Shown: piece by piece, positions 34,377 to 52,060 of the stretch
How the letters are laid out: each line of letters opens with the position of its first letter
How positions within the stretch are numbered: the stretch's first letter is position 1
Assembly: GCA_017631325.1 (NCBI GenBank)
Contig: JAGBTM010000045.1
Span: 71,348-135,347 of the forward strand
Direction of reading: 5' to 3'
Source: Clostridia bacterium
GTDB lineage: Bacteria > Bacillota > Clostridia > Oscillospirales > CAG-272
DNA: 64,000 nucleotides
The notes under the pieces: model-generated
What the model saw: the letters and a program-made list of their open reading frames with translations, nothing else
What the model was told of the DNA's origin: nothing
Database searches by the model: none
Translations under genes and position numbers: made by a program

Positions 34377-35948
34377 TTATTTTAACAGAGAAAGGGCGCA
34401 CATAAGTCCGTCTCGCGCCGAGGAAATTATACCCCCCGAATACCCTGCTCCCTCACCTACGGGGTAAAGACCGTCTATTCCGTTTGCCGAGAAGGTGTCG
34501 CCTCGCTCTACCCTTACGGGCGAGGTACTACGCGTTTCGGGGGCTGTTAAGAGGGCGTCGGGGAAAATATATCCTGGCAACCAAGCGTCAAAATCGGAAA
34601 GGCCCTCGCGAAGCGAGTCGGTAATAAAGGACGGGAGCACGTAATCCATCGACATAGCTACACAGCCACGGGGATAGGTGGCCCCCACCGAGCCGAATGA
34701 GGTTACAGGCGAATTTGACAAAAAGTCCGAAAGGCGCTCGGCAGGTGCCATATAGGCGGAACCCGCACGCACAAACGCCTCGCGCTCTATCCTCTCCTGC
34801 AAGGCTATACCGAGCATCGCGTCATCTCCGAAATCGCTTGGCGATACCGAAACTAGCAGCGCGGCGTTTGAATTTTCACCGTTCCTTGCATGAAGGCTCA
34901 TACCGTTTGTTACGACTCCTCCATCCTCGCTTGAGGCCGCTACGACCTCACCTCCGGGACACATACAGAAGCTATATACGCTTCTGCCCGAGGATAGATG
35001 CGTTACTAGGTGATACGAGGCGGCGCCTAGTCGCTCGGGAGCCGGTGCGCCGTAAACGAGATTATCTATATACTCTCGGGGGTGCTCAATTCTGACACCA
35101 ATACCAAACTGCTTTGGTGTGAGGGTAGCTCCTTTGTCTCTCAAAAGTCTGTACACGTCGCGCGCGCTGTGGCCTGTGGCGAGGATAAGCTTTTCTGCCG
35201 AAAAATCGACAAAATCCCCGTTTTTCTCTACACGCCCCCCTATTATTTTGCCATTTTTAATAAAGAGGTCAACGAGCCTTGCACCGAATACGACCTCACC
35301 GCCAAGCGAAATTATGCGCTCTCTTATGCGCTTTACTATAAGCGAAAGCTTGTCGGTGCCGACGTGGGCAGAGGTTGAATATATTATCTCCGGCGGTGCG
35401 CCGTTCTCTATCAGGCGCTCGAGTATCCATCGCTTATAGCCGTCGAGCGAGCCGTATTTAAGCTTACCGTCGGAATAGGTTCCTGCCCCTCCCTCACCGA
35501 ACTGAACGTTGCACTCGGTGTCAAGTATGCCAAGTGTATTAAAGAGTTTTACTCGCTTTACTCGCTCGTCAACTTCAAGTCCACGTTCGTAGACTATCGG
35601 GCGCGCGCCAGCTTCTGCAAGGGCAAGCGCGGCAAAAAGACCTGCCGGGCCGAAGCCTACTATGACGGGGCGGGATTTGAGGGTCGATTTTGGAATGGAG
35701 ATATGCTCTTCATCAAATGGCTTTACGTGATTTTTTAAATTTAAGAGACGCTTCTCTACTTCCTCGTGTGCCGAAATTGCCACCGACACGTCATAGTGGA
35801 TATCCTGCTTCGACTTCACGTTCAAAGCTCTGCGAACTATGATTAAGTCCTTTATTTGTTCGCGCTTTATCGGTATTCTGTCAAGAACGGCTGATATTAT
35901 ATCCGAATCGTTATATTCAATTTTCAGCTTTATCTCGGTTTTTATCAT
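34377..35948 (-). CDS. FAD-dependent protein (COG2509-like NAD(FAD)-utilising dehydrogenase)
   Basis: 'VIVGFGPAGLFAALALAEAG' dinucleotide fold and C-terminal 'GLYPVGEGAGYSGGIISSARDG'. Confidence 0.8.
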   Translation of the reverse strand: MIKTEIKLKIEYNDSDIISAVLDRIPIKREQIKDLIIVRRALNVKSKQDIHYDVSVAISAHEEVEKRLLNLKNHVKPFDEEHISIPKSTLKSRPVIVGFGPAGLFAALALAEAGARPIVYERGLEVDERVKRVKLFNTLGILDTECNVQFGEGGAGTYSDGKLKYGSLDGYKRWILERLIENGAPPEIIYSTSAHVGTDKLSLIVKRIRERIISLGGEVVFGARLVDLFIKNGKIIGGRVEKNGDFVDFSAEKLILATGHSARDVYRLLRDKGATLTPKQFGIGVRIEHPREYIDNLVYGAPAPERLGAASYHLVTHLSSGRSVYSFCMCPGGEVVAASSEDGGVVTNGMSLHARNGENSNAALLVSVSPSDFGDDAMLGIALQERIEREAFVRAGSAYMAPAERLSDFLSNSPVTSFGSVGATYPRGCVAMSMDYVLPSFITDSLREGLSDFDAWLPGYIFPDALLTAPETRSTSPVRVERGDTFSANGIDGLYPVGEGAGYSGGIISSARDGLMCALSLLK

Positions 35949-36061
35949 TTCTCTCTTCCTTTTATTAAAGGCTTTATATTTTACTCTTTTATTTTATCAC
36001 ATATACACTTCTTTTGCAATAGCGCCCTTTACTTTAACGGTAAATTAATTTAGGCTAGGCA

Positions 36062-36096
36062 ACAAAAAGAGCGTGAGTGCTGTGGCACTCACGCTC
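36062..36096 (-). terminator. Intrinsic terminator of the seven-gene operon
   Basis: GAGCGTGAGTGC-tgtg-GCACTCACGCTC forms a 12-bp GC-rich stem, followed on the minus strand by TTTTTG. A second small hairpin lies at 36099-36115. Confidence 0.8.
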
Positions 36097-36146
36097 TCGC
36101 TCTGACGAGTCAGAGAAATAAGGTTTTTAAAATACTCGTGCTTTGA

Positions 36147-37196
36147 TTAACCTACAAGGCCGGAGCGCTCGATACCCTGAACGAGATATCTCTGGCAGAA
36201 CAGGTACATAATAACGAGAGGAAGAATAATCATAATACCTGCGGTATTATCTATAACGTTCTCGTAAAACTTCATACCCGAGTGGTTAAACTGAAGGTGA
36301 AGCGGAACATCCTCGATGAGCTTAGGCATCATCCAAGGCGCCTGAGGTCCTCCAAAGAACACGCTGGTGTAAAATTCGTCGGTCCACTGCCACGAGAATG
36401 AGAAGAGGAATATCGTAATCATCATGGGCACGGAAAGAGGAATTATAATCTGAATGAAGGTACGGAACGTACCCGAGCCGTCAACGTACGCAGACTCCTC
36501 AAGCTCGTCGGGAACGCCCTTGAAGAACTGGCGCATGAGGTAGATATAAAGTCCGTTCTTAAGCGCAAGGCCGCCAAGGGACATTATAGCAAAGGGCCAA
36601 TAGGTGTTCTTGAGTGATACGCGTGAACCGGTCAGAAGCTCTACTATACCCGAGAGGTCCTTATTTAAGGACGCAGGAACGAGAAGGTCGAAATCATTGA
36701 AGAAGGATCTCATAGACATCTCAAGCGTTCCGTGAGGTATAAGCATTACTACGATAACGAGCGCAAACACGAGATTGTTGCCCTTGAACTTGAACTTTGC
36801 AAGTCCATATCCTACAAGACAGGATACAAAGGTCTGGATAAACGCACAAAGAAGCGAAAGCAAGATAGTGTTACCAAACGCCTCAAAGTATCTGTTCTCA
36901 AGTACCATGTATTTATATATGTCAAAGGTAGGGTTCTTGGGAATAAGCGATACGGTTGCGTCAACTACGTCGTCGATAGACATGAACGAGCCTGCAATCT
37001 TAGAGAAGAACGGGAAAAGGATTACGTAGGATATACCAAGCATCAGTATGAACTTGAAGATGCTGATTATAACCTTAATCCAGGTGTTAGACGCCTTAAC
37101 CTTTTGCATAAGGCGTTCCTTGAAGGTGAGCTTACCCTCGTAATCAACACTGATTCTATTTTTGGTTTCTTTTGTAATAATCGGTTTTGAATCCAT
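36147..37196 (-). CDS. Carbohydrate ABC transporter permease (MalG-like), second pair
   Basis: EAA loop 'EESAYVDGSGTFRTFIQIIIPLSVP' and 6 TM segments. ATG 37196 is preferred (GGAGGTG 6 nt upstream); the listed GTG 37205 lies inside that SD. Confidence 0.85.
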   Translation of the reverse strand: MDSKPIITKETKNRISVDYEGKLTFKERLMQKVKASNTWIKVIISIFKFILMLGISYVILFPFFSKIAGSFMSIDDVVDATVSLIPKNPTFDIYKYMVLENRYFEAFGNTILLSLLCAFIQTFVSCLVGYGLAKFKFKGNNLVFALVIVVMLIPHGTLEMSMRSFFNDFDLLVPASLNKDLSGIVELLTGSRVSLKNTYWPFAIMSLGGLALKNGLYIYLMRQFFKGVPDELEESAYVDGSGTFRTFIQIIIPLSVPMMITIFLFSFSWQWTDEFYTSVFFGGPQAPWMMPKLIEDVPLHLQFNHSGMKFYENVIDNTAGIMIILPLVIMYLFCQRYLVQGIERSGLVG

Positions 37197-37209
37197 TGTA
37201 AGCACCTCC

Positions 37210-38199
37210 TTAATCCCTTCTCTGATAGAAGACGAAGGACGAAGCTATAAGTCCGACCACGCCTATAATAAGCGCAACGAGTAAGAAGTAAATCCAAGAC
37301 ATCGCAACGCCTACGCCTGCCGTTCCACCGTATCCTGACGCATAATTCATCGCGGGGTTGGTGGTTCTGGTAAACGCGTCGATAACCGTGTAAATGGCGT
37401 TAACCAAGATCATGGGTGATATCATCGGGAAGGTAACCTTCCAGAAGGTCTCCCAGCCGGTTGCACCCTCTATCTGACACGCCTCGTAAATTGAGGGAGA
37501 GATAGACTGGAGACCTGCAAGGAATATAAGCATCTGTACGCCCGAGTAGTTGATGATGTTGTAGATATCGTTTACGAGGTCTACAACGTACTGAACGAGC
37601 TCGGTTCCTATCTTCATGTTGGCAAACAGAGACTGTACGTCAAGCATTGATATGATTTCGTTGCCGTTCTGCTGCTGGGTGCCGTCGTTGATACCCTGGT
37701 CAGCGCTGCCTGACATCAAATCCGCTGCGTTGATAGTCTCCATAACACCCGTTGAAATAATAACGGGAACGAAGAAGATAGCACGGAAAAGCGCACGGCC
37801 AAGCATCTTCTGGTTAAGAACTACCGCTATGAACAGGGAGAAAATGATAATCGCAGGAACCTGGAAAAGTATCTCCTGTATGGAAGCGAGAAGCACCTGG
37901 TAGAAGCCCTTATCGTTAAAGGCTGCTACGTAATGCTCAAAGCCTACGCCGTAGGTTACGCTGATGGGCTCCTTGATACCGCTTGGGCCTGTAACGTACT
38001 CGGTTGCAAAGTTACTGAAGCTGTACCAGATAGCATCAAAAAGTATAGGAAGATAAATAAGAACTATACCGAGTAAGAAGGGGAGGACGAAAACGTATCC
38101 CGCCCTTGCCTTTCTCGCGTCGAGTGACGCTTTACCCTTAAAGAGAGACTTAAAGGTGGAAAGCGAAAGCTTTTTTGCACTTTTTACATTATTACTCAT
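37210..38199 (-). CDS. Sugar ABC transporter permease (MalF-like), second pair
   Basis: EAA loop 'YEACQIEGATGWETFWKVTFPMISP'. ATG 38199 is preferred (AGGAGG 7 nt upstream). There is a long extracytoplasmic loop, 'ADLMSGSADQGINDGTQQQNGNE...'. Confidence 0.85.
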   Translation of the reverse strand: MSNNVKSAKKLSLSTFKSLFKGKASLDARKARAGYVFVLPFLLGIVLIYLPILFDAIWYSFSNFATEYVTGPSGIKEPISVTYGVGFEHYVAAFNDKGFYQVLLASIQEILFQVPAIIIFSLFIAVVLNQKMLGRALFRAIFFVPVIISTGVMETINAADLMSGSADQGINDGTQQQNGNEIISMLDVQSLFANMKIGTELVQYVVDLVNDIYNIINYSGVQMLIFLAGLQSISPSIYEACQIEGATGWETFWKVTFPMISPMILVNAIYTVIDAFTRTTNPAMNYASGYGGTAGVGVAMSWIYFLLVALIIGVVGLIASSFVFYQRRD

Positions 38200-38212
38200 A
38201 ATCTTTCCTCCT

Positions 38213-41200
38213 TTAGTTCTCAATCTTTATGAAGCCGCACTTGGAAATTCTGCGAACCTCGGTGCCCGACGTAATCGAGCCGTCAATAGAGCTGTCGAGT
38301 CTGACGTCAACAGCGAAGCCGTTGTAGTTAAGAATGAACTTGACGGTTTTGCCGCTCGATGCTTCCTTGTAGGTAACGATAACTACGTTGCCGTTATCAC
38401 AGGTGAAGTCGGTTGCCGCATAATCCTCAGCGTTCGCAACGGAGTCGGTTACGTAGTTGTACTTAGAGGTATATACTACGTCGGAGGCAAGAAGATTCAC
38501 AGTATCGGTAGCAGAAGCCTCGGGATACTGCTGGTCATACTTTGCAACAACCCCGCTTATAAGAGTTGTGAAGCCGTAGCTGTTGAGCTCAGCCAAATCA
38601 GCAAAGTTGAAGCGTGCTATTGCATCGGCTGCAAGTGCGTCCTTGTCGACCGAAACGTGAATCGCCTTACCAAGGTTAGCATCGAAATCCTGTGCCCACT
38701 CGTCAAGCTTTGCGTTGATAATTTTTGCAATAGAGCTGTCAACCGCCTCTACGTACTCACGAACAAGATCGGTGTTATTCTTGATAGCATCGGTCGAGTT
38801 AATGATACGCTCTGCGATAAGAGCCTTATGGTCTACTATGTCGTAATTCTGAAGATTTCCGATAGCACCGTTAAGCTTCTTGTAGTGCTCTACTATCTCG
38901 TCAAACCAGTTCTCGTAGTCAACACCGTAGTACTTGGAGAGCTGTTCGTCCTCCTTAAGATAGTTGGTGTTCTGCATACAGAGAATGTAGTAAAGAGATG
39001 CGCCGTTCTCGATAGAACGAAGAATGTTATAATCCACCGAGCCGGTGTAGTTAAGAGGTGTGCCTGCATAATTTACGTAACCGTGAAGAACCATTCCAAG
39101 AAAAGGTACCGTGTAAGAGGTACAAATCAGGTGGCTTGAGTCGATGGTTGCGTTGACTATGTGGTCTACGTACTTAACAGAGTAAATGTTTCCGATATCG
39201 GTCATAAGCGAGTAACCGCTGGTGTTAGCCATCTTATCGAGCACAGCAGCGACGTCGCGAAGAGACTCTTCTCTGTCAATAATGTTGTCATTGTGCTTAT
39301 CGTTGTCCATGTTGGAGTTAAGCACAGAGCCGAGAGTAGCTACCGAAAGGTTCTTGTTACCGAATTTAGAATAGTCCTTGTTGAACTTCTCGTAGAGCTC
39401 GGCGAGAACGTCGGAGCGAACGAGAACCGCAAAGAGCGAATCGTACTTACCGGTAATAGAGTTGTAAATCTGCTTTGAAGCGTAACGGTTATCAAGCATC
39501 TTAGATGCGTGAGAATTGTTGTCTACGCCGTCAAATATTGCAGTATTGTTGATAAACTGGAAGTCAAAGTCGGGGAAAATACCGAAGTTGGTATTGGGGT
39601 CCTGGTCGCCTGCCTTGTCGTTTGAGGACGAAACGAGCGACTTATATCCACTATCACCACCGAGCGAGTTCTCCCACCATACTCTTGCGGGGTATGTGTA
39701 GTACATACCACCGTTTGCAAAGCCGGTGAGCTTGAAGTTGACGTTCTTTACGCCTGCCTCGGACAGCTCGTTATACATAGTCTGTACGTCAGCAAAGGTC
39801 GTAAGAGGTGTGGAAACGGATACGGGGAAGGTCAAAATCTTCTGGATAACGTCCATAGAGCCGAGAGTCTCGATATAAAGGGGAAGCTCGGTTGCATCGG
39901 TCGTTACCTTGGAAATAAGACCCGCATTGATAAGGTACTCCTTGTAGCACGCTGCCATTCCTATGTAGGTGGTAGGATAGTACTCACTTATCGTGTGATC
40001 CTCTGCAAGCGTGGGATCGGTAAGCATAAAGTACTTTGTCTCAAAGGAGCCTTCGAAGGCACGGTTAGATACCATGTAATGCGTCTTACCTGCAAGAGAG
40101 CTGTGAGCTGCCGACAGGTCGTACTTTTCGTAAGCTCTAGGAGCGAAGGAAGCGTAGGAGCAGATGTAGGTGTGAGTACCGAACTCAGACTCTGCGATTA
40201 TGGTTGCAATCGACGAGCCCTCCTCAATAATGGCGAAGAAGCCGCTTACAAAGGAATCTCTGTCGGTGACGTATATATCCTCATAAAGAGGATCGCCGTA
40301 CTCCTGTGCAAGCTCACCGTTGGTGTACTCGTTCGAGTTAACGGTGTTAACCATACCGTAGACAGGCATAGTTACCTGCTCTCTGTGCTTTGCAATAATG
40401 TTGGCGTAGCAGTAGTCGGGGCCGTAAACGGTAGAGGATACGTTGATATTACCTCTGTCGTTGTTGGACTCGGAGATACGGAAGTCTGCAAACTCTATTA
40501 CAGTTCCGCTTCCGTCAGGATAAAATGCGTAACCGTCGTTAACGGTATCGCCGTAGCCAAAATACTGAAGGGGGGAGATAGACTTTACGATAAAGTCTGC
40601 GCTGTTGTAGATTATGCTCTCGGAGGGAACCTCAACTGAGAGTGTGCCGTCCTCGTTAAGAGTATAAACTACGCTGCACTTGAAATCGGGAATGGTAGAG
40701 AGCGCAGTCACGTAGCCTGCACGGGCTTCGAGCTCTCTTGCCTTCTCCTCAGTAAGCTCGGGAAGGTACTTGTTGATAACGTTACCGATAAGTCTGTGCT
40801 TAGTAACAAGCTCGGTCTGCTCGGTCGTCTTATCAATACCGAAGGCGTTAAGGCCCGTGGTCTGCATAGCAGGAATAGACTCGTACCAACGGTTGAGGTA
40901 GGTATCGTAGTTAGTCTTGTTCTCTGCCCTCTCCGTTTCGCTAATGTCGGTATCGTTGTAGGGGAAGGACTCGTAAAGAACCTGAACGTTGTAGTCGTTG
41001 TAGTTTGCGAATATCTCGTTGATAGCCGAAACGTACTCGGAAATCTCGGTTCTCTTAGCCTTGTTTTTGCTACCTGTAAGAATCTTAGATGCGTAGCTTT
41101 CGTAAGCTGACGTTACGAGCTTTATCTGCGTGCTTCTGAAGCCACCGTAGTTCGTAAGAGCTTCTTTATCGGTGAGATAAGCGTTGTAGCTACCAAGCTT

Positions 41201-41884
41201 TCCGTATCCGGATACGGAAACGTTGACGCTTGAATCAAACTCACCAAGATGCTTGGTAAGAAGGTCGGAAAGGCCCTTGAAAAGAGGTGCTACGAGGTAG
41301 GTCTCAAAGTCGTCAGCAAGCATAGCGCCGGGAGTCTTCTTGATAAACTCAGGCTCACCGAGCTTATAATCAACGGTAAAGGTATTCTCATCATAGTGAA
41401 TAGTGATAAGCGAGCCGTCGGTTATACGCTTGTAGCTGCACTCCTGAACGTCCGCCTCGGGATTAGAGCGAAGCGAATACACGAGAGAAACCTGGCTGAG
41501 AACCTCAGCGGGAATGTTCGAGTCGCTATCACCGGGGTTTGCGGGGTTGGAGGCAAGAATCTGGTTGGTTATATTATTCTTGTAGTAAAGAACGCCTGTG
41601 TACCTGTTGATATAGAGGCTATAATCACCGTAGGTGAAATAGTCGAGATAATCTTCTTCATAGTCGGAGCTGAACATCTCGTATACGTTAGCGTACTTTG
41701 CGGTCTTGTATTTGTTTGCTATCTCTTTCTTTTGCTCAAGTGTTTTGTTGTCGTTTTCCTTGACGTAAAAATCCGTAACAGAAGGTGTTTCTGATGCCAT
41801 AGCTGTCAGCGGAAATGCCGCTATAATCGTAGAAAGAAGAAGCACTGCGACAAGTACGGCTGATAATATTCTATTTCTTTTCAT
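38213..41884 (-). CDS. 1223-aa secreted protein of unknown function (possibly the family annotated DUF5696; glycosidase-like barrel is only a guess)
   Basis: Signal peptide 'MKRNRILSAVLVAVLLLSTIIAAFPLTAMA' and an AGGAGG RBS. There is no further TM segment and no LPXTG, SLH or catalytic motif I can assign. Conserved-looking blocks are 'YAFYPDGSG', 'LPLYIETLGSMD', 'KLTGFANGGMYY', 'FGIFPDFDFQF' and 'VPFLGMVLHGYVNYAG'. Confidence 0.8.
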   Translation of the reverse strand: MKRNRILSAVLVAVLLLSTIIAAFPLTAMASETPSVTDFYVKENDNKTLEQKKEIANKYKTAKYANVYEMFSSDYEEDYLDYFTYGDYSLYINRYTGVLYYKNNITNQILASNPANPGDSDSNIPAEVLSQVSLVYSLRSNPEADVQECSYKRITDGSLITIHYDENTFTVDYKLGEPEFIKKTPGAMLADDFETYLVAPLFKGLSDLLTKHLGEFDSSVNVSVSGYGKLGSYNAYLTDKEALTNYGGFRSTQIKLVTSAYESYASKILTGSKNKAKRTEISEYVSAINEIFANYNDYNVQVLYESFPYNDTDISETERAENKTNYDTYLNRWYESIPAMQTTGLNAFGIDKTTEQTELVTKHRLIGNVINKYLPELTEEKARELEARAGYVTALSTIPDFKCSVVYTLNEDGTLSVEVPSESIIYNSADFIVKSISPLQYFGYGDTVNDGYAFYPDGSGTVIEFADFRISESNNDRGNINVSSTVYGPDYCYANIIAKHREQVTMPVYGMVNTVNSNEYTNGELAQEYGDPLYEDIYVTDRDSFVSGFFAIIEEGSSIATIIAESEFGTHTYICSYASFAPRAYEKYDLSAAHSSLAGKTHYMVSNRAFEGSFETKYFMLTDPTLAEDHTISEYYPTTYIGMAACYKEYLINAGLISKVTTDATELPLYIETLGSMDVIQKILTFPVSVSTPLTTFADVQTMYNELSEAGVKNVNFKLTGFANGGMYYTYPARVWWENSLGGDSGYKSLVSSSNDKAGDQDPNTNFGIFPDFDFQFINNTAIFDGVDNNSHASKMLDNRYASKQIYNSITGKYDSLFAVLVRSDVLAELYEKFNKDYSKFGNKNLSVATLGSVLNSNMDNDKHNDNIIDREESLRDVAAVLDKMANTSGYSLMTDIGNIYSVKYVDHIVNATIDSSHLICTSYTVPFLGMVLHGYVNYAGTPLNYTGSVDYNILRSIENGASLYYILCMQNTNYLKEDEQLSKYYGVDYENWFDEIVEHYKKLNGAIGNLQNYDIVDHKALIAERIINSTDAIKNNTDLVREYVEAVDSSIAKIINAKLDEWAQDFDANLGKAIHVSVDKDALAADAIARFNFADLAELNSYGFTTLISGVVAKYDQQYPEASATDTVNLLASDVVYTSKYNYVTDSVANAEDYAATDFTCDNGNVVIVTYKEASSGKTVKFILNYNGFAVDVRLDSSIDGSITSGTEVRRISKCGFIKIEN

Positions 41885-41899
41885 ACTTTACCTCCTTTA

Positions 41900-44161
41900 C
41901 TATACTAGCGTCGCTATTTCGGTAACAATTGAGATTACGAAGGTTACCATCTTAACGACAAGGCTTGAGAACAGTATTGCTATGAACATGATAACTGCCA
42001 TCGCAACGATAGTTCCAAGGGTTGTGATAATGTTCTTGCCGATAGAATAGTCGTGTGTAACAACCATACCGAAGAACAGAAGAAGCAGCGCCCAAACCCA
42101 ACCGACTGTTGCCAGAAGGTTTACAAGGCCCGATTCGTTTATCGTAAATACGTTGGTGAGAACAGTGGAAATTGTGATAAATACGGGAAGCGGAGCGAGC
42201 GAATAGCAGGTCGCAATGTAAATATCCTTGAAGCTTCCCTCACCGTCGAAGAGTGTAGTCAGACACCAGTTTGCTACTACCCACAAAAGCACGGGAACAA
42301 GGATTCCAAGCACCTGCATAAATACCGTGGTGTAGTCGCCTCTTGGGTTGAATACGTAGCCCTGACCTATGCTCTGGTAGAAGAATGCGATAACGCTGAT
42401 ACCGAGAATGGTGGTAGCTGCTCTGACAGAGCCGCGTTTCTCATGCTTAAGATCCCAGAAGCCGTCGAACGGGTGGAATATAAGGTGTAATACGTAGAGC
42501 AACTCCTCGCCGTAGCTCTTTCTACCTACCTTGAGTGCGGTTGCCTTATTCCTCTTCTTAGCCCAGCCAAGGAACTTGAAGAAAAAGCCGATAGCTACAA
42601 TAAGGACAATAATCAGAGGCAGAAGCCATACTGAGAGAATATCCTTACGCTTTGCAGCAAATGCGATAGAGTAATAATCGGTCTCATACGCGCTCTGAAG
42701 CATCTTCATAGCCTCGTCGTATTTACCCTGGTTGAACAGCGCCTTACCTATACCGATATAAGCAAGGTCAAAGTTGTTGTTTCTGGTAAGTACTGCCTGC
42801 CAGCTGTCGATAGCCTCAGCGTACTTGTAGTTGTTCTCGTAATGGAGAGCCTCCATTATCATATCGCAGTATACGGTAGGCTCGTAGATAACGAGCTTAA
42901 CGCCGCCGTTAGAGGTACGGTCAAGAACTGCGAGGTTGTAGATTTCCTTATCTGCTTCCTCGTCGTATACTACCTGATAGGTCATAGCAGTATAATCGGA
43001 GGCATTACCTACCTGGTTTCCCTTGTCGCCAAAGGCGAAAAGAAGGTTTCCGCTTGAGTCGTAGGTAAAAATTCTGGATCTTGCGGAGATATCGAGGGTA
43101 GTGTTACCTTCGATCTGGTCAAGAAGAGACCAGGTTCCCTCTGCACCGAGAGCAACGTCGCGTATCATTGATACCTCTATGGGATTAGTTGCTCCTACCT
43201 CTCCGCCCGGATCAAAGAAGCCGGTACGGTTAAGTATCTCCTTACCTACCGAGTTAAGCTTCTTGATAGGAGAATAGGTTGAATCCTTAGACTGAAGTGC
43301 TGCAAGCTGGTTCGTTTTATCGCCCTCACTCGTGAAGGAAATAGTCGCGTAAACGAAGCCAAGGTCGTCAACGGTAAGGTTGTTGAAGGGGTTGGGAAGC
43401 TTGTAGTCACTCTTGTCGTCTGTGCCGGTTAAGTTCTCCCAGATAGCAGTTAAGGGGTCGGCGGTAATCTTCTGCGCGCCGATGTAACCTGTAAATTCAC
43501 CCTCACCTGACATAACGATGATTCCGCGGTAGCACTGTCTTGAAGCGACGAAAATTCTACCGTAGATGTCAACCGCAATAGCAGTAGGCATGAAATACTT
43601 CTTTGTAAGAAGGGGGCTGCTGTCGTCGGCTGCATCAGTTCCCTCGGGGTCGTCAGCAACCGTGATGGTTCTGGAATAAACGAACTCACCGCTCGTCGTA
43701 TCTCTGTCGAACACTACTATTCTCTTGTTAGCAGTGTCGCAGACGAACAGACTCTCGGAGCCGTCAATCATTTTGTTAGGGTTAGTAACGTAGATACCCT
43801 CGGGAGAGTTAAAGGTCTGCTCCCTGCCGTACTCGTCAACGTACTTCTCAATAACGCTCTTTACCTTATAGTTATATCTGTTGAGGACGATTATACGGCT
43901 GTTGGTCACGTCAGTTATGTAGAAGTTGCCCTCGCTGTCGGTAACAATGTCGGTCGCGTTGTTGAGGGGCTTGTCAAGACCCATATACACGTAGTCGTAG
44001 GTTGCTACGTCGGGAGTGTAAGCCGCAGGTGACATAAGCGGCTTGCCGTCGATGGAGTAGGTGTAAGTGTCGTAGGACTCGTATGCGGAGGAGAATACGG
44101 TGCCAAACAGCATGATTGCCGTTATGGCAAGAATAAGTATTTTCGTAAGTTTACTTTTCAT
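41900..44161 (-). CDS. Signal peptide + NHL-type beta-propeller + TPR + Yip1-domain polytopic membrane protein (753 aa)
   Basis: NHL-like blades 'ITDVTNSRIIVLNRYNYKV' and 'VCDTANKRIVVFDRD'. TPR 'YKYAEAIDSWQAVLTRNNNFDLAYIGIGKALFNQGKYDEAMKML'. One TM segment is followed by 'HPFDGFWDLKHEKRGS' plus 5 TM segments, typical of Yip1 domains. Confidence 0.8.
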   Translation of the reverse strand: MKSKLTKILILAITAIMLFGTVFSSAYESYDTYTYSIDGKPLMSPAAYTPDVATYDYVYMGLDKPLNNATDIVTDSEGNFYITDVTNSRIIVLNRYNYKVKSVIEKYVDEYGREQTFNSPEGIYVTNPNKMIDGSESLFVCDTANKRIVVFDRDTTSGEFVYSRTITVADDPEGTDAADDSSPLLTKKYFMPTAIAVDIYGRIFVASRQCYRGIIVMSGEGEFTGYIGAQKITADPLTAIWENLTGTDDKSDYKLPNPFNNLTVDDLGFVYATISFTSEGDKTNQLAALQSKDSTYSPIKKLNSVGKEILNRTGFFDPGGEVGATNPIEVSMIRDVALGAEGTWSLLDQIEGNTTLDISARSRIFTYDSSGNLLFAFGDKGNQVGNASDYTAMTYQVVYDEEADKEIYNLAVLDRTSNGGVKLVIYEPTVYCDMIMEALHYENNYKYAEAIDSWQAVLTRNNNFDLAYIGIGKALFNQGKYDEAMKMLQSAYETDYYSIAFAAKRKDILSVWLLPLIIVLIVAIGFFFKFLGWAKKRNKATALKVGRKSYGEELLYVLHLIFHPFDGFWDLKHEKRGSVRAATTILGISVIAFFYQSIGQGYVFNPRGDYTTVFMQVLGILVPVLLWVVANWCLTTLFDGEGSFKDIYIATCYSLAPLPVFITISTVLTNVFTINESGLVNLLATVGWVWALLLLFFGMVVTHDYSIGKNIITTLGTIVAMAVIMFIAILFSSLVVKMVTFVISIVTEIATLV

Positions 44162-44174
44162 GCTTTCCTCCTTT

Positions 44175-45071
44175 TTAGTCCTTCATACCAGAGGAGCCCA
44201 TCGTTTCGATAATCTTACTCTGGTTAATAACGAATATTGCGATAGGAACCGTCATCATAATAACGATCGATGCAGCTCCTGCGCCCGAACGGGCGATACC
44301 GCCTGAAAGAATCTGGTTGATTGCGTAGTTGAAGGTTTTGAGCTCCTCGGAGTGAATGTAAACCGAAGCGCCTGCGTTCCAAAGACCCTTGAAGCACTCT
44401 ATCATAAGAGTAAGCCATGCAGGCTTAACCATAGGCATCGCTATAACGAGGAAGGTTCGTACCTCACTTGCGCCGTCAAGACGCGCAGACTCAAGAACCG
44501 TATCGGGAACCGAGGATTCCATGAACTGCTTCATAAGGTAAAGACCCATCGTCGTAGCCATAGAGGGAACGATAATAGAGAGATAAGTATCTACCCAACC
44601 GAACGCGGAAAGAATGATAAAGTGCGTTACCGTGTTAACCGTTGAGTGGAACATAAGAGAGGTTACTATAACCTGGAAGATTATGTTTCTGCCGGGGAAA
44701 CGAAGCTTCGAGAGCGAATATGCCGCCATAGAAGCAATTACAAGGTTACCGAGTGTACCGCAGATAGTGATAAACACGGTATTGAATATGTACCTTGAGA
44801 AAGGAACCCACGAGTCACTCATAAGAGTGAAAAGCTCTGTAAAGTTATCAAAGGTAGGGCTGACAACGTAGAATCTCGGGGGGAACATAAACAGCTCGTC
44901 AAGAGGCTTGAGTGACTGTATAACGACGTAGTACATCGGGAAGAACATTATTACTCCGAGTATCGAAAGAACGATGGTAATACCCGTGTCACCGCCCGCC
45001 GAACGGTTAAGGACGACTCTGTGTCCTCTGGTTCTTAGCTTCTTATACTTTTCTTTTGCCATATTACTCAC
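44175..45071 (-). CDS. Carbohydrate ABC transporter permease (MalG-like), first pair
   Basis: EAA loop 'LESARLDGASEVRTFLVIAMPMVKP'. The start could alternatively be ATG 45062. It overlaps the upstream permease stop. Confidence 0.85.
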   Translation of the reverse strand: MSNMAKEKYKKLRTRGHRVVLNRSAGGDTGITIVLSILGVIMFFPMYYVVIQSLKPLDELFMFPPRFYVVSPTFDNFTELFTLMSDSWVPFSRYIFNTVFITICGTLGNLVIASMAAYSLSKLRFPGRNIIFQVIVTSLMFHSTVNTVTHFIILSAFGWVDTYLSIIVPSMATTMGLYLMKQFMESSVPDTVLESARLDGASEVRTFLVIAMPMVKPAWLTLMIECFKGLWNAGASVYIHSEELKTFNYAINQILSGGIARSGAGAASIVIMMTVPIAIFVINQSKIIETMGSSGMKD

Positions 45072-46026
45072 CTACCTTCGAGAGCGCGTTCTTAACGAGT
45101 ATGTTCGAGCCATACATGATTACGAACAGCACCACGGCTATTGCCGAAGCATAGCCAAGCTCATATCTTTGTCCGCCGTAGTCCGACAAATGGTGCATAA
45201 TGGTATGCGCCGCATAGTCAACCGAGGGATAACCGCAGAGTGCGTCAACGACAGCACCGAAGCCGAAGGAGCTGGTGATCGAAAGAACCGCACCGAACAT
45301 CATCTGCGGACGCATAGTGGGAAGCGTGATAAACCAAAGCTCCTGCCAACGGTTCTTGATACCGTCGACGGCAGCCGCCTCGTACATCGAGCGGTCTATG
45401 GTCTGGAAGCCCGCGATGAACGAGAGGAACGCAGTACCGAGAGAGGTCCAGAGCGCAACTACGATACACAGAGGCATAACGTATGCTGCGTCCTCGAACC
45501 AAAGTATCGGGTCGGTTATAAAGCCTAGCTTCATAAGCGTTGCGTTTGCCCAACCGTAGGAGTCGGACGAGAAAAGAGTTTTCCAAATCAGGTAAACCTG
45601 ACCTGAAATCGAGGGTGCGTAGAATACGAGGGTAACTACCGCACGCACCTTGGGGGGAAGCTCGTTTACGAACCATGCAACAAGAAGCGACATGATATAC
45701 GAAACAGGACCCGTTACGGCCGCGAATATAAGAGTGTTCTGAATGGCGAGCATGAATATCTCGTCCTCAAGGAACAGTCTTGTATAGTTATCTATTCCCT
45801 TGAAATTCGGGGGAAACTGAAGCATGTTGAAGTCTGTAAGACTAAGTATTATTGAAAGAAATACGGGCAGGACTGTGAATACTATGAAGAGAATACAGAA
45901 AGGCGCTACCATAAAGTAGGCTGTCTTGTTTCTCTTGATTTCTTTCCAGGTCCATTGCCACTTCGACATTTCGTCCCTCTTTACAGGGCGCGCAGTGTCG
46001 ACGGTTTTAACATTTTCCTGTGACAT
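45064..46026 (-). CDS. Sugar ABC transporter permease (MalF-like), first pair
   Basis: EAA loop 'YEAAAVDGIKNRWQELWFITLPTMRP', 6 TM segments and an AAGGAG RBS. Confidence 0.85.
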   Translation of the reverse strand: MSQENVKTVDTARPVKRDEMSKWQWTWKEIKRNKTAYFMVAPFCILFIVFTVLPVFLSIILSLTDFNMLQFPPNFKGIDNYTRLFLEDEIFMLAIQNTLIFAAVTGPVSYIMSLLVAWFVNELPPKVRAVVTLVFYAPSISGQVYLIWKTLFSSDSYGWANATLMKLGFITDPILWFEDAAYVMPLCIVVALWTSLGTAFLSFIAGFQTIDRSMYEAAAVDGIKNRWQELWFITLPTMRPQMMFGAVLSITSSFGFGAVVDALCGYPSVDYAAHTIMHHLSDYGGQRYELGYASAIAVVLFVIMYGSNILVKNALSKVGE

Positions 46027-46056
46027 CTTTTTCTCCTTTACTGTTAGTCTTACTCA

Positions 46057-49000
46057 TTAGCCTTTTGTGGGAGCCGAGGCATTCTTATCAAGAGAAGGAA
46101 GGCCGAACTCCTCACGCTTACGAGAAATTTCAGAGTTGATAGCATCGATGTAGTCCATCATAGCGTCGTGAGGCTTAGCACCCTCGTTGTATACGTCGAG
46201 GAATGCAAACTTCATGTATCTTGCATAGATGTACGAGCCGGGATAGTTTACGATAGCATCAAGGTGATCCATCTGATTTCTGATCGCAGCCTTTTCGTTT
46301 GCGGTCCAAGAGAGGTCCTCGATTGCGTTGATGTTTGCGGTTTCATACTTTGCAGCAGGTCCGATGAGGGCTACTATTCTGTTACCGTAGTTAGACTGAA
46401 CATCGGCACTGGTCTGCCACTGTGTAAACTGCCAGGAAGGAAGAAGATCCTGATCTCCGCCGTCAAGACAGCTTCTGAGAATAATGGTTGCGGTTACCGT
46501 TGCAAGAGAGTCGTAGTTGTAAGCGCCGGTATCCTTGTCAAAGGAGCCGGGGATAGACGAGAACTCCCAAAGTCCCGAAATATCGGTTGCATAGATAACG
46601 AGAGTGTTGTATACGGTTGCGTAATCACCTACGGTGATAGGCATCTCACCGGTTCTGAAACGGTTCGCTATATCGAAGGATACAGGGAACGAGTAGTCGG
46701 TGTAAAGACGGCATACGAAGTCGAACGCCTCAAGTGCTATATCGGAGTCAAGGTCGATTTTCGCGCCTGCCCACTTGGAGTCGTACTTCGACTGGTCGGT
46801 GTACTTCCACATGCTGCCGCCCATCTGATACATCATGAAGTCAAGCGCCAGAACGTAGGTTACACCGATGTCCATGTTGTTTGCCTGAAGAACGGGAAGT
46901 ATCTCAAGCAGCTGGTCCCAGGTCTCAGGAACCTCTTGGTTAAGCTCTGCGAGAATGTCCATACGGTAGAACATCATCGGGAAGCCCATCGTCATCGGGA
47001 TACCGTAGGTAACGTCTGCGTTTTCCTTGCCCTCGTTGAGAGGAGAATATATCGTAAGGGTCTTCATCGCGGCAGGAGCAAACTGGCCGTCAATAGCTGC
47101 CTCGAACTTGTTGGATACGAGCGTAAGTCCCTGCGCAGCCGCATCGGCATCGGAAAGAGGCTCTGCGTACTTGTACGTCTTGCCACTTGCGTCCTTATAT
47201 ATGTAGTTAGAGAATACCGCATTCTGCTCGTCGGTAAGATAGGGGTCGTTACCGCTGACGCCGATTATCGCCTCACGAATTGCGTAGTTGATAACTTCAG
47301 CCGCGCCAAATCCGAGGTAAACGTCGGGGCCCTTACCAGAAAGGATAGATGGAAGAAGCGTACCGCCGGTTACGAGCTTAAGCGAAACTGCCGTGCCGTA
47401 TCTATCGGTAAAGCCGCCCTCAGCGTCGAGCATTGAACGCCATATCTGCGACTGGTCACGACCGGAAGCAAGCCATACATCGATGCTGTGAACGCCCTCC
47501 TCGGGAAGCGAGGTAACACCCATCTGGTTGTAGTCGGTGAAGAACGAATATATGAAAGAGCATATCTCGAACCAAATAGACTGGAAGAAATTAGCTGATG
47601 CGTATGGAATCTGTTCGGTAGTATTTACAGGAACGATGCAAATACTATCTACCATCATAGTACCCTGCTTGGAGCTGTTAATCCAAGTACCGAGAGTACC
47701 GAGGTAGGACTTAAAGGTAGAAAGGTTTGCGGCAATTTCCTTACCGTAATTCTTACCCATCGTGTTAAGAAGACGCGCGACGGTGTCAAGAGTGGAGATG
47801 TGCGCACCGTTGGTACCGCACTCGCGCTCAAGCTCGTCTGCTATCTCGGTGAGGTTGATAGCCTCCTTAATAAGAGTAACGAGCACGCCGGGAAGCTGCT
47901 TTTCGAACATGTAGTCCTGGTTTGCGTCAGCGTCCGCACCGGTGTACTGAATTATCTTAAGGTATGCTTCGTTGAGATTAGCAAGAGTGGATTCAACCTT
48001 CTGAATGTGCTCCTTGAGGTCACCGAGAGCGCACTCTACGTGGAGTGTGTACTCAACTCCTGCCTCAAAATAGAACTGATAATCGGTCTTTTCCTTTACG
48101 GGATTGCCGTTTCCGTCATACACGGGGTTGCCGGCCTCATCGTACTTCTGAACATAGCCACTGATTTTTGTCGACTGCCAGTTGCTATCGTAGTCGAAGC
48201 GTGCGTTTTCAGCCTCCTTGAAGGGAGAGGTGGGTGTGCCGTTAAGACCGTACTCACCGCCTGCGAGCTTAAAGGAACGGCAGATGAACATACCCTGAAG
48301 GGCGTTCTGCTTGTAACGCATCGAGAGATTATACATTCCCGACTGGTTGACGGTAAACTTATAGGTTGCCCACTGGCCGATAGCATCGTATCCCGTCTCG
48401 CCAATTACGTTAAAGAGCTGCGCGTTGGGAGCAATAGGATAGGTGATAGCCGAAGTGTTATCGTTGCTTGCAGAAACCGAAGCGTCGGATACGGAATCCG
48501 GGAACTCTGCCTCGATAACGGTAATCGAGCCACCTGCCGCGCTCTTGCCGGAGTGAAGCTCAAGGTAATCTCTGTACGAAATTACGTCGGAGCCGCCATC
48601 TTCTGCAGGAACGAACTCTATCGACTTGATAATAACAGGCTCACGCTCTGCCTCAAGAGTGATAGTGTGCGTACCCTCTGCAAGATAGAACTTGAAGTTG
48701 CCCTCGGTGTAGCCTGCTTTGTCAGCGCATATGTAGGTGGACCACTCGGACGACTCCTCGGCCAAGGGGGCCATAGAGTTACCGTTGATGTCCTGCTCTA
48801 TCGTATAGGTAGTGACAACCTGCATAAGCTTGCCACTCGCTGCATCGGAGTAGACCTCGGTTACGTATTTGTTATAATGACCTCTGGTGCCCTTCACAAC
48901 GTCTGCGGGTATGTACTCGTAGGTTACGGTGGTGCCAACGGTAGCGCCTGCAGGTGCCTCAGTGGGTTCGCTGTCGCTATAGTTGTTATAGGACCAGTGC

Positions 49001-49557
49001 TTATCAAGAGTCAAGCTGCTGACCTCGGAGAACGGAATCTTTCCGTCGATGAGAAGCTTACGCTGTATAGCGCTGACGCTACTCTCGGACGTCTGGCAGT
49101 TGTAATACTCAATCTTGAGGAAGTAAAGGCCGACCTCCTCATTAGTCACTGTGAAATTCCACGATACAGAAGATGCCTTCTTGTCGTTGTTGATAGTCGT
49201 GAGATAAACGGAGCTGTTCGCGTTGTCACCAAAGCCACCCCAAGCCGAAGCGTTATTTTCGAGCGCCTCGAGGTAATAGGGGCTATCCACAGTGATGTAA
49301 GCGTCGCCGTTGTTTTCGATAAAATTCGTCACGTCAATGAATTTCGACACAAGTCCGTCAGGGTTGACAAACTCAGCGTAATCCTCAATGTACTCTGCAT
49401 ACGACGAGGTGCCGACGAGGGCTTTCATTTCCTCAAGCGTAGAAGAGGTGCTCGCTTCCTTGTACTGACCTGCCGAAGCGCCGACAGTAAAGGTCGCAAG
49501 AATGAACGTAACAGAAAGAATCAAACACACAACTTTCTGAAACAGGGTTCTTTTCAT
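46057..49557 (-). CDS. Giant (1166 aa) secreted fusion: ~600-aa N-terminal beta-sandwich/CBM-like modules + helical linker + family-1-type solute-binding domain
   Basis: Signal peptide 'MKRTLFQKVVCLILSVTFILATFTVGASA'. Two similar modules end in 'YFLKIEYYN...' and 'YNLSMRYKQ...'. The C-terminal ~500 aa carry SBP features: 'IDVWLASGRDQSQIW', 'GKGPDVYLG' and 'IPMTMGFPMMFYRMDIL'. Confidence 0.82.
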   Translation of the reverse strand: MKRTLFQKVVCLILSVTFILATFTVGASAGQYKEASTSSTLEEMKALVGTSSYAEYIEDYAEFVNPDGLVSKFIDVTNFIENNGDAYITVDSPYYLEALENNASAWGGFGDNANSSVYLTTINNDKKASSVSWNFTVTNEEVGLYFLKIEYYNCQTSESSVSAIQRKLLIDGKIPFSEVSSLTLDKHWSYNNYSDSEPTEAPAGATVGTTVTYEYIPADVVKGTRGHYNKYVTEVYSDAASGKLMQVVTTYTIEQDINGNSMAPLAEESSEWSTYICADKAGYTEGNFKFYLAEGTHTITLEAEREPVIIKSIEFVPAEDGGSDVISYRDYLELHSGKSAAGGSITVIEAEFPDSVSDASVSASNDNTSAITYPIAPNAQLFNVIGETGYDAIGQWATYKFTVNQSGMYNLSMRYKQNALQGMFICRSFKLAGGEYGLNGTPTSPFKEAENARFDYDSNWQSTKISGYVQKYDEAGNPVYDGNGNPVKEKTDYQFYFEAGVEYTLHVECALGDLKEHIQKVESTLANLNEAYLKIIQYTGADADANQDYMFEKQLPGVLVTLIKEAINLTEIADELERECGTNGAHISTLDTVARLLNTMGKNYGKEIAANLSTFKSYLGTLGTWINSSKQGTMMVDSICIVPVNTTEQIPYASANFFQSIWFEICSFIYSFFTDYNQMGVTSLPEEGVHSIDVWLASGRDQSQIWRSMLDAEGGFTDRYGTAVSLKLVTGGTLLPSILSGKGPDVYLGFGAAEVINYAIREAIIGVSGNDPYLTDEQNAVFSNYIYKDASGKTYKYAEPLSDADAAAQGLTLVSNKFEAAIDGQFAPAAMKTLTIYSPLNEGKENADVTYGIPMTMGFPMMFYRMDILAELNQEVPETWDQLLEILPVLQANNMDIGVTYVLALDFMMYQMGGSMWKYTDQSKYDSKWAGAKIDLDSDIALEAFDFVCRLYTDYSFPVSFDIANRFRTGEMPITVGDYATVYNTLVIYATDISGLWEFSSIPGSFDKDTGAYNYDSLATVTATIILRSCLDGGDQDLLPSWQFTQWQTSADVQSNYGNRIVALIGPAAKYETANINAIEDLSWTANEKAAIRNQMDHLDAIVNYPGSYIYARYMKFAFLDVYNEGAKPHDAMMDYIDAINSEISRKREEFGLPSLDKNASAPTKG

Positions 49558-49628
49558 TGCTGATTTCCTCCAAAAAACTCTTTCATGTAATGCGCGGCCG
49601 TCCTACCGCGCCAAATTTACACACATGA

Positions 49629-49657
49629 ATTATACCACACACGCAAAAAAATGTCAA
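49629..49657 (-). promoter_or_regulatory. Consensus sigmaA promoter (TTGACA-17-TATAAT) of the seven-gene operon
   Basis: On the minus strand, TTGACA is the complement of 49652-49657, the spacer is 17 nt, and TATAAT is the complement of 49629-49634. The ~65-nt leader carries a GCGCGG/CCGCGC hairpin and a GGAGGA RBS before ATG 49557. Confidence 0.65.
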
Positions 49658-49729
49658 TAGTATATATAATATAATAAGAAATCTTGAACGCCGCATTTGA
49701 GCTCCTGAAGTGAAGCGTCAACTTAAAAT

Positions 49730-49860
49730 GTAAATAGTTATTTACACGATTTTGAAATTATTACGCAAATGATTTGGCAGAAGTAAATAAAAATTACTTT
49801 TTTGCGCCGGTTTTGGTGTTAAAAACAGAAATTTTACGCATATTAGTAAATTAAATTTAC
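49730..49860. promoter_or_regulatory. Array of AT-rich dyads with GTAAAT/ATTTAC half-sites upstream of the operon promoter
   Basis: GTAAATAGTTATTTAC at 49730-49745, AAGTAAATAAAAATTACTT at 49781-49799, and GTAAATTAAATTTAC at 49846-49860. Confidence 0.4.
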
Positions 49861-50213
49861 CTATTTGGTTATATTTTCCAAGGATTTTAGCTTGAAAAAG
49901 CACATTTTGTTTTTTGTATAAATTGCACAAAAATGCCTTGTTTTTTTCTACACGACAATTTTTTAAAAAAACACCCGAAATTGCTCACAAAAATGAGTTT
50001 TCAGGTGTTTTAGTTTGTTTTATTCCTGTTTTAAATTATGTTACTCGACAAATTTTGAGCCTGTTTTGCCCCAATAAATTACTATATATAATAATATAAT
50101 GGAAGAATTTCGACAGAATACCAAGATGAAAAGGCTCACGAAAGCACCCCGTCACCCTTCTGTTTTTTTATTGCCACGCTTATGAAAAACAGACAGAAAT
50201 CGACCAAAATCGA

Positions 50214-51242
50214 TTAGCAAATTATACCCCCAAAGGCTACGCTTTTGTCGATATATGCAACCGCAGACTGTCCAGGCGCCGCCCTGAGCGGTGCATCAAA
50301 TTTAAGACTTATTCTGCCGTCAGAAAGCAGTCTGCATTCTGCCTCTACAAGCGGAGCCGAGTATCTAATTTTGACGCGAGCCTTTATAGGATTTGACAGC
50401 ATTTTAGGAGTTACACCCGAGAAAACGGGGTCGGAAATAAAGATTTCGCTTTTCCCCTTAGGCTCGCCGGAAAGGGTTACGGTGTTATCATCGGGGTTAA
50501 TTTCGGTGACGAACACGCGCGAGCCAAGTGAAATCCCAAGCCCCTTTCTCTGCCCCACCGTATAACGAATTATACCGTTATGAGTGCCGAGAATATTGCC
50601 CTTTTCATCTATAAAATCTCCTTTTTTCGACGGACCTCGCACGCTTTCGATGTATTCTGCGTAATTTCCGTCGGGAAGAAAGCATATTTCCTGACTGTCA
50701 CGACGGTCTGCGGCAGAAAGAGACCTGCTTTTTGCTTCCTTTCGCACGTCGAGCTTCGTCGTATCGCCAAGAGGCAAGACAAGCGTTGATAATATCTTTT
50801 GGGGCAGCCTATATAACATATAGGACTGGTCCTTTTTCGTATCGTCTGCCTGCGAGATGGCGTATCTTTCGCCAAATTGGTCACAAATTTTCGTCACCTT
50901 GGCATAATGTCCCGTAGCAATAGCGTCAAATCCCTCTTTCATAGCAAAATCGTAAAGAAATTTGAACTTAACTCGCTCGTTACAGATAATGCAGGGATTA
51001 GGGGTCCTGGCAGAAAGATACTCGGATACGAAATTTTCCTTTACTATTCTATTAAACTCGTCGGTGGCGTCTATAACGTGAAGCTTTATTGAAAGCTCCT
51101 GCGCCGCAAGGGCTGCCGCATCTATTTCGGTATGCTCGTGCATCAAGAGCACGGCGCCCTCGACACAATGTCCGTCTTGCATAAGCTTCTTTGCGGCATA
51201 GGCGCTGTCTACACCGCCTGAAAGTCCGAGAAGAATTCTCAT
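50214..51242 (-). CDS. mnmA: tRNA 2-thiouridine(34) synthase MnmA
   Basis: PP-loop 'LGLSGGVDSAYAA' and the catalytic Cys context 'NPCIICNERVKF'. Confidence 0.93.
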   Translation of the reverse strand: MRILLGLSGGVDSAYAAKKLMQDGHCVEGAVLLMHEHTEIDAAALAAQELSIKLHVIDATDEFNRIVKENFVSEYLSARTPNPCIICNERVKFKFLYDFAMKEGFDAIATGHYAKVTKICDQFGERYAISQADDTKKDQSYMLYRLPQKILSTLVLPLGDTTKLDVRKEAKSRSLSAADRRDSQEICFLPDGNYAEYIESVRGPSKKGDFIDEKGNILGTHNGIIRYTVGQRKGLGISLGSRVFVTEINPDDNTVTLSGEPKGKSEIFISDPVFSGVTPKMLSNPIKARVKIRYSAPLVEAECRLLSDGRISLKFDAPLRAAPGQSAVAYIDKSVAFGGIIC

Positions 51243-51890: not shown

Positions 51891-51904
51891 CTGGTTTTTC
51901 CTCT

Positions 51905-52023: not shown

Positions 52024-52060
52024 AACGCGTGCTTAAGTCAGGGTCGCTTATGCCGTTTTA

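Follow-up and report, generated by a model that had tools for sequence, protein, structure and literature searches.

A fused NHL propeller, TPR and Yip1 membrane protein encoded in a dual ABC glycan-import cassette of Clostridia

Bacterial Yip1 proteins are widespread and almost unstudied, and the family described here ties one of them to a fixed set of partners. The gene under study lies at 41900-44161 on the (-) strand of a 64,000-nucleotide stretch of DNA from a Clostridia bacterium (GenBank assembly GCA_017631325.1, contig JAGBTM010000045.1, positions 71,348 to 135,347), which is called the window throughout and to which all coordinates refer unless another locus is named. Its open reading frame (ORF) is intact, starts with ATG and encodes 753 amino acids (aa), with a GGAGG ribosome-binding site 7 nucleotides (nt) 5' of the start codon, and the gene was confirmed to be real. 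It is the fourth of seven genes in a cassette for ATP-binding cassette (ABC) import. A preliminary description of the same DNA had proposed that the product joins an NHL propeller and tetratricopeptide repeats (TPR), behind a signal peptide, to a transmembrane (TM) helix and a Yip1 membrane domain.

That fusion was borne out by Pfam, matches to consensus TPR proteins, hydropathy, a structural model and Foldseek. The protein was confirmed to consist of a signal peptide, a six-bladed NHL propeller, two TPR motifs, one TM helix, a K/R-rich linker and a five-TM Yip1 domain, all encoded on the (-) strand. The signal peptide (residues 1-26; 44084..44161) has its hydropathy peak at residues 3-28 and ends at a cleavage-type site, 'SSA/YE'. 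The extracellular propeller (residues ~30-428; 42878..44074) was identified by Pfam NHL, the AlphaFold model and Foldseek; the NHL profile (PF01436) matched above its cut-off at a single repeat, residues 66-92 (30.3 bits, cut-off 20), and the remaining blades were too divergent for it. The two TPR motifs occupy residues 429-498 (42668..42877). Here the Pfam profiles stayed just below their cut-offs over residues ~436-496 (TPR_2 25 vs 27, TPR_19 24.1 vs 25), phmmer matched residues 444-497 to consensus TPR proteins of the PDB with E = 1.4e-8, and the model contained the helices. TM helix 1 (residues 504-532; 42566..42652), which anchors the propeller-TPR part, gave a Kyte-Doolittle peak of 2.89. 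It is followed by the K/R-rich cytoplasmic linker (residues 533-581; 42419..42565), which contains HPFDGFWDLKHEKRGS, and by the Yip1 five-TM core (residues 582-753; 41903..42418). The Yip1 profile (PF04893) matched with 60.9 bits (cut-off 28.6) at residues 559-728 and covered its positions 2-172 of 173, in agreement with the earlier placement of this module at approximately nt 41903-42514.

The hydropathy plot thus showed an N-terminal signal peptide, a strong TM helix 1 and the Yip1 helices. In the loop at residues 533-581 there are 11 K/R against 5 D/E; the loop should therefore be cytoplasmic and the first ~500 residues, including the propeller, outside the cell, so that the earlier picture of an external propeller tethered to a polytopic membrane domain holds. 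The AlphaFold2 model, built on 56 homologs, reached a pLDDT of 75 and a pTM of 0.62, with the propeller blocks mostly at 85-95. Residues 30-428 form about 24 strands in it; these are followed by two pairs of TPR helices (four helices, 430-489), a long TM helix, two short helices in the cytoplasm and the five helices of Yip1 (579-604, 611-639, 644-671, 674-702 and 707-752). The top Foldseek matches in the PDB were the six-bladed NHL propellers of TRIM71, Brat and Pizza/Pizza6 (E 1e-9 to 1e-8, TM-score to target 0.67-0.74), and the search additionally returned virginiamycin B lyase, paraoxonase, strictosidine synthase and BtuG with bound B12. Weak profile matches to SGL and ScyF-NHL were also detected.

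A seven-gene cassette in fused and split form

The seven (-) genes of the cassette encode, in order, a giant secreted solute-binding protein (SBP; 1166 aa, 46057..49557, identified by homology to a Bacillus SBP), permA (320 aa, 45064..46026), permB (298 aa, 44175..45071), the propeller-Yip1 protein, a secreted DUF5696 protein (1223 aa, 38213..41884; Pfam DUF5696, 387 bits), permC (337 aa, 37210..38223) and permD (352 aa, 36147..37205). The four perm genes encode ABC importer membrane subunits. From permA to permD the matches to BPD_transp_1 (35.3, 34, 39.4 and 57.4 bits) were all above the cut-off and the EAA loops (EAA-x3-G...LP) read 'YEAAAVDG...ITLP', 'ESARLDGA', 'YEACQIEGA' and 'EESAYVDGS', from which we concluded that two type I importer dimers are encoded. 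The gene had been described as embedded between permease pairs. Its direct neighbours are permB, on its 5' side, and the DUF5696 gene, on its 3' side, so this did not hold for the gene by itself, but the pair that it forms with the DUF5696 gene is indeed bracketed by permA/B and permC/D.

Within the cassette the genes overlap or are separated by gaps of at most 30 nt; the start of permB, for instance, overlaps the stop of permA by 8 nt. A promoter-like TTGACA-17-TATAAT sequence with a TG extension (49629..49657, (-) strand) lies about 70 nt 5' of the first gene; it agrees with the consensus at 12/12 positions and is the sole perfect match within 35800-50300. About 50 nt past permD there is a terminator-like hairpin of 14 pairs (8 G-C) followed by a T run (36067..36098, (-) strand). 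With one promoter-like site, one terminator-like hairpin and such tight spacing, the cassette is predicted to form one transcription unit. The called TTG start of permC overlaps the DUF5696 stop by 11 nt, and an in-frame ATG eight codons further on (MSNNVK...) may be the true start.

A protein search with the propeller-Yip1 protein returned 1742 relatives. Among the best 120 of these there was one identical protein, and nearly all covered at least 90% of the query and carried Yip1; they came from Clostridia metagenome-assembled genomes and were annotated only as 'YIP1 family protein'. In a one-genome-per-species collection, at least 556 genome stretches encode a relative. The seven window proteins were compared by tblastn with the best 80 loci, and gene order was judged where the flank sufficed: the seven-gene order was kept in every such locus, down to 44% identity of the propeller-Yip1 protein, with permA 58-89% identical across the compared loci. 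The order was also kept in 10/10 more distant loci. The cassette is thus found in hundreds of uncultured gut Clostridia species, and the fusion is conserved together with its neighbours. One of the related loci, L011 (CAVEOF010000005.1), is titled Coriobacteriaceae, yet in coordinates and identities it is nearly identical to L025 from an uncultured Eubacteriales; its label may be a binning or labelling error.

When residues 500-753 were searched by phmmer against 1.84 billion cluster representatives, 1688 matches at E <= 1e-3 were obtained, 257 of them at E <= 1e-30. The best 150 representatives (50% identity clusters) were mostly fused proteins of ~690-780 aa, with about twenty stand-alone proteins of ~200 aa among them. 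The architecture had been presented as an oddity, and this view was not upheld, as it belongs to a large family. Yip1 matches of 430-490 aa were at first taken for an architecture lacking the propeller. They carry TPR and Yip1, one of them with a propeller remnant, look like N-terminally truncated metagenome fragments and were left out as a separate form. About half of the close homologs are longer, 870-1030 aa, owing to an extra N-terminal region of ~150-250 aa (P0028, P0065, P0096 and others; L003, L010, L023). In some homologs this region, which the window protein does not have, matches LRR_5 (PF13306) or a teneurin-type NHL (TEN_NHL, PF25021).

Distant DUF5696 homologs led to cassette loci in Bacillus sp. 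FJAT-49711 and Paenibacillus sp. UNC496MF, and a search from the small Yip1 protein to the cassette in Cohnella cellulosilytica and Aureibacillus halotolerans. In these soil Bacilli the module is split. The layout is a giant SBP (~980-995 aa, SBP_bac_1), two permeases, an NHL/TPR protein of 473-508 aa, a Yip1 protein of 204-215 aa, DUF5696 and two permeases, and the Yip1 start overlaps the NHL/TPR stop by 4 nt in 4/5 split loci. Residues 1-526 of the window protein, TM anchor included, have their counterpart in the Bacillus 489-aa protein (28% identity, E = 9e-45), whose gene ends just past the helix homologous to TM helix 1, and residues 559-749 have theirs in the stand-alone 204-aa Yip1 protein (30% identity, E = 3e-33). 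As the two Bacilli products match successive stretches of the window protein from one end to the other, the latter represents the fused form of a two-protein module, and the existence of both forms argues for a joint function of the propeller-TPR and Yip1 proteins. Further distant loci have the fused form.

Across the 56 homologs the mean identity was 83% in the linker, 72% in the Yip1 core, 71% in the TPR pair and 52% in the propeller. The linker, in which many residues are invariant, is the most conserved segment and spans the junction of the two genes. Taken together, it is firmly supported that the propeller-Yip1 protein is an obligatory, co-inherited part of a dual ABC glycan-import cassette and that it unites a propeller-TPR anchor protein and a Yip1 protein in one chain.

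The neighbours of the distant loci differ: araBDA, GH43 and an arabinofuranosidase in L081 (Bacillus sp. FJAT-49711), CBM6 and GFO-type oxidoreductases in L083, and GH3, GH130, GH35, a fucosidase, GH125 and GH18 in L086 (GH, glycoside hydrolase; CBM, carbohydrate-binding module). The setting in L081 hints at substrates of the arabinan or arabinoxylan type. The same cassette amid such different neighbours points to a portable module that is used in different glycan-utilisation settings. Five distant loci (L081 1389-2786, L082 1-2977, L089 13880-15313 and L090 1153-2565, all from Bacilli, and L086 1519-2967, which is unassigned) have a further SBP, or two, beside the cassette. These SBPs are of ordinary size (465-483 aa) and could serve the second permease pair. 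The clade of the window has no extra SBP inside the cassette, which leaves permC/D there without an obvious binding protein.

The giant secreted proteins and co-variation of the cassette

The 1166-aa protein gave no Pfam match above 0.05 and nothing in NCBIfam. Residues 846-982 match the SBP YcjN weakly (E = 3e-4), the C-terminal part gives weak matches to the sugar-binding proteins YcjN, Lin1841 and TMBP, and a 990-aa Bacillus protein with SBP_bac_1/SBP_bac_8 shares 29% identity with the 1166-aa protein (E = 7e-95). By these homologies it is predicted to be a giant sugar-binding protein with a C-terminal sugar-SBP domain. Its N-terminal half comprises two internal beta-sandwich-like repeats of a 'W..F.V...G.Y.....Y' type, which align to each other in the Bacillus homolog too.

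The DUF5696 model was of high quality (pLDDT 91.5, pTM 0.86). Foldseek ranked GH129 first (ZgGH129 and NagBb), followed by GH101 and then GH31, GH36, GH97 and GH13; the GH129 structure 8rzk (ZgGH129) matched with E = 1.6e-17 and a TM-score to target of ~0.62, and 5wzp with E = 5.9e-17. A sequence search of the PDB with DUF5696 gave a single match, which was judged to be due to chance, and NCBIfam gave no match either. From the model, DUF5696 is confidently predicted to adopt a GH129/GH101-like glycosidase fold, i.e. a beta-sandwich and a (beta/alpha)8 barrel. With NagBb, ZgGH129, EngBF and SpGH101 it shares the N-terminal beta-sandwich and the barrel, but it is only ~10% identical to them and belongs to no GH family profile. 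An invariant PDGSG motif lies at residues 456-460, and the conserved acidic residues D457, D490, E586, E672, D774, E872 and E959 are candidate catalytic residues. The family has no assigned function and our literature search for DUF5696 found no paper; judged by its modelled fold, it may be an unclassified glycoside hydrolase family.

Both giant proteins have signal peptides of the signal peptidase I type, and neither a lipobox, an LPXTG motif nor a C-terminal TM helix was found in either of them. Lacking such anchors, both would need a tether. A signal peptide without a lipobox is unusual for a Gram-positive SBP.

Pairwise-distance matrices of 51 loci and the window were compared, with a taxon bootstrap. 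SBP, permA and permB were mutually correlated (r = 0.88-0.95). The propeller correlated with DUF5696 (r = 0.86), permC (0.80) and permD (0.76), and at lower values with SBP (0.69) and permA/B (0.47); the bootstrap confidence intervals of these differences exclude 0. The Yip1 part showed no preference between the permease pairs (0.73 vs 0.70). A pure rate artefact is unlikely, as the fast-evolving SBP follows the slow permA/B, and so is a pure adjacency artefact, as the 5' propeller half, which is farther from the DUF5696 gene, tracks DUF5696 better than the 3' Yip1 half does. The correlations are thus suggestive of a tie of the propeller to DUF5696 and permC/D.

Proposed role of the propeller-Yip1 protein

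NHL and TPR domains are typical protein-binding modules. We propose that the propeller-Yip1 protein is a membrane-embedded accessory or organiser subunit of a seven-gene apparatus for glycan capture and import, a reading to which we assign a probability of roughly one half. In the membrane, the type I ABC permease dimers would have the Yip1 bundle and the conserved cytoplasmic linker at their side. The propeller and the TPR pair, which would reach out of the cell, would bind other proteins and keep them in place, with the secreted, anchorless DUF5696 glycosidase-like protein as the foremost candidate. Products of glycan cleavage would then be released next to permC/D, the giant SBP would feed permA/B, and the ATPase subunits would be supplied from elsewhere in the genome. 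The protein had previously been suggested to act as a scaffold, gate or sensor for the two ABC pores. A scaffold fits best, and gate and sensor found no specific support, as there is neither a signalling domain nor a conserved regulator; the propeller does not follow the two pores equally, its evolution tracking DUF5696 and permC/D.

Several points weigh against this proposal. The physical contacts between the protein and its cassette partners are ones that we infer, and correlated distances can stem from shared rate shifts instead of contact. For the membrane domain, the model reaches only moderate confidence (pLDDT ~65-80). Six-bladed propellers of the NHL type can be enzymes or ligand binders too, as indicated by the Foldseek list and the weak SGL match. 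The giant proteins might also be anchored by their own signal peptides, if these are left uncleaved, in which case a tether would be needless. Finally, no importer ATPase is encoded within the window, where one protein alone, a fused ABC protein of the exporter type (56389-58512), has the Walker A and LSGGQ motifs of an ABC-type ATPase. The ATPase of the cassette must be encoded elsewhere in the genome, and an importer ATPase outside the operon is usual for sugar importers of Firmicutes.

If the propeller itself were the working part, as a lectin-like glycan binder or as an enzyme of the lyase, lactonase or esterase type, TM helix 1 and Yip1 would be a mere anchor. The enzymatic and ligand-binding propellers among the Foldseek matches speak for this, as do the SGL and ScyF-NHL matches, the LRR_5 and TEN_NHL domains of surface type at the N-terminus of some homologs, and the variability of the propeller, which exceeds that of all other domains and would be expected of a part that follows a changing substrate. 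However, no catalytic or other enzyme family reached its cut-off in the Pfam and NCBIfam scans, and the residues conserved in the blades are those of the generic NHL repeat signature. Moreover, a mere anchor requires neither a five-TM Yip1 core that is more conserved than the propeller nor a linker conserved at 83%, and the Bacilli keep an adjacent, separate Yip1 gene although their propeller protein has a TM anchor of its own. We consider a working propeller unlikely, though it deserves to be kept in view.

A sensor or regulator, in which the propeller detects a substrate or a loaded partner and the linker signals to the ABC ATPase or the permeases and so gates transport, would agree with the linker around HPFDGFWDLKHEKRGS being the best-conserved segment and with the lack of a permease-pair preference in the Yip1 part, as a common regulator might show. 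There is also a precedent in PknD of M. tuberculosis, where an extracellular NHL propeller is carried by a membrane signalling part, and the PknD-derived Pizza is among the best structural matches. The likeness to PknD and the eukaryotic TRIM-NHL domains lies in the six-bladed fold and, for PknD, in the position of the propeller outside the cell on a membrane protein; the identity is only ~15%, and the window protein differs by a polytopic Yip1 membrane part and the absence of a kinase or signalling domain. No kinase, helix-turn-helix (HTH), GGDEF or other output domain was found in it by Pfam, and neither a regulator nor an ATPase gene is conserved beside the cassette among the related loci. 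In the Bacilli the propeller and the linker-Yip1 part are separate polypeptides, which makes signalling through the chain less simple. Such a role therefore seems improbable to us.

It is still less probable that the Yip1 domain is itself a transporter or channel for a cleavage product or a lipid-linked intermediate, with the ABC permeases acting independently. Bacterial Yip1 domains have no assigned biochemical function, and the highly conserved polytopic five-TM core has invariant polar residues in or near its helices (N631, W632, C633, the D639-G640-E641-G642 loop and H703). Nevertheless, the cassette already has two complete permease dimers, no Yip1-family protein is known to transport, and the bacterial example that has been studied is an assembly modulator (PMC4887032). 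The origin of the window in a metagenome-assembled genome and the separate genes of the Bacilli might suggest that the fusion stems from faulty assembly or annotation, or that it is a functionally meaningless accident of one lineage; this is refuted by the intact fused frame in 80 independently assembled genomes, the fused majority among the best 150 representatives and the junction region being the best-conserved part of the protein.

The organiser role that we favour has its closest counterparts among Yip1 proteins of exporter systems. YknW of Bacillus, a protein of the Yip1 family, is an accessory subunit that modulates the assembly of the ABC transporter YknXYZ (PMC4887032), and Yip1 proteins such as BawG recur in bacteriocin ABC clusters (PMC10707071). 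Like the window protein, these are bacterial five-TM Yip1 membrane proteins encoded inside ABC transporter operons. They differ in being ~200-230 aa long without propeller or TPR, and their partners are MacB-type exporters with an HlyD/MFP adaptor (MFP, membrane fusion protein) instead of two BPD_transp_1 importer pairs, an SBP and a glycosidase-like protein; the likeness to YknW is one of domain type and gene setting. As the permeases are of the importer type and no HlyD/MFP gene was found beside the propeller-Yip1 gene, the protein is not a member of a YknW-type system and can at most work like one. With the CUT1-type carbohydrate importers of Firmicutes (MalEFG/MsmEFG with the shared MsmK/MsmX ATPase) the cassette shares EAA-loop permease heterodimers, an extracellular sugar-binding protein and the lack of an ATPase gene in the operon, but it has two permease pairs in one operon and an SBP of ~1000-1200 aa without a lipid anchor, and adds the obligatory propeller-TPR, Yip1 and DUF5696 parts.

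In the Sus-like 'utilisome' of Bacteroidota, SusCD, surface glycan-binding proteins and enzymes are encoded together and have been proposed to act as one machine. A Gram-positive version can be imagined, in which a Yip1 hub docks the anchorless GH129-like enzyme by means of the NHL propeller and the TPR pair onto permC/D, so that products would enter this importer without a classical binding protein, with permA/B being fed by a giant CBM-bearing SBP in the same complex. The likeness to the Sus system is one of concept, as the proteins are unrelated and the Sus envelope is Gram-negative, and we regard this elaborate scheme as doubtful. If it were true, bacterial Yip1 domains would be general assembly hubs for ABC transporters. 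Should the parts indeed assemble into a single complex, this would reveal how surface enzymes and binding proteins that have no anchor are retained at a transporter in Gram-positive bacteria.

Our search of the literature for Yip1 in combination with NHL, or with sugar importers, SBPs, glycoside hydrolases or polysaccharide utilization, found nothing relevant, and none was found on the cassette; public annotation of the relatives ends at 'YIP1 family protein' or 'hypothetical protein'. The individual parts are of known kinds, i.e. an ABC importer, an NHL propeller, TPR, Yip1 and a GH-like fold. Their fixed combination, the relation of fused and split forms and the glycosidase-like fold of DUF5696 appear to be undescribed. 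As a sugar importer, the cassette combines two permease pairs with a binding protein of at least ~1000 aa and obligatory accessory membrane proteins, a layout on which no literature was found, and it points to a possible new glycoside hydrolase family in DUF5696. Its occurrence in culturable Paenibacillus, Bacillus and Cohnella makes it genetically testable.

Surroundings of the cassette

The other content of the window is of a housekeeping type (iscS, iscU, mnmA, polC and peptidases). The genes iscS, iscU and mnmA lie directly 5' of the cassette (50214-53269, (-) strand), and up to 35 related loci likewise have one or more of them upstream. Beyond the cassette, iscS-iscU-mnmA and a ROK kinase are the only recurring flanks. 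The recurrence of iscS, iscU and mnmA argues for a stable chromosomal position of the cassette in the clade of the window, and not for a mobile island. About 2 kb downstream, at 32090-34269 (-), a gene for an AraC-family regulator shares 13 nt with the start of a gene for a family 4 glycosidase; no conservation of this pair beside the cassette was found in the related loci.

Long stop-free antisense ORFs were detected on the (+) strand at 46168-47436, 47800-49563 and 38156-39139 (422, 587 and 327 aa). They are nested in the SBP and DUF5696/permC genes and begin with GTG, and their translations are of low complexity and rich in V, R and L; most likely they are a by-product of codon usage.

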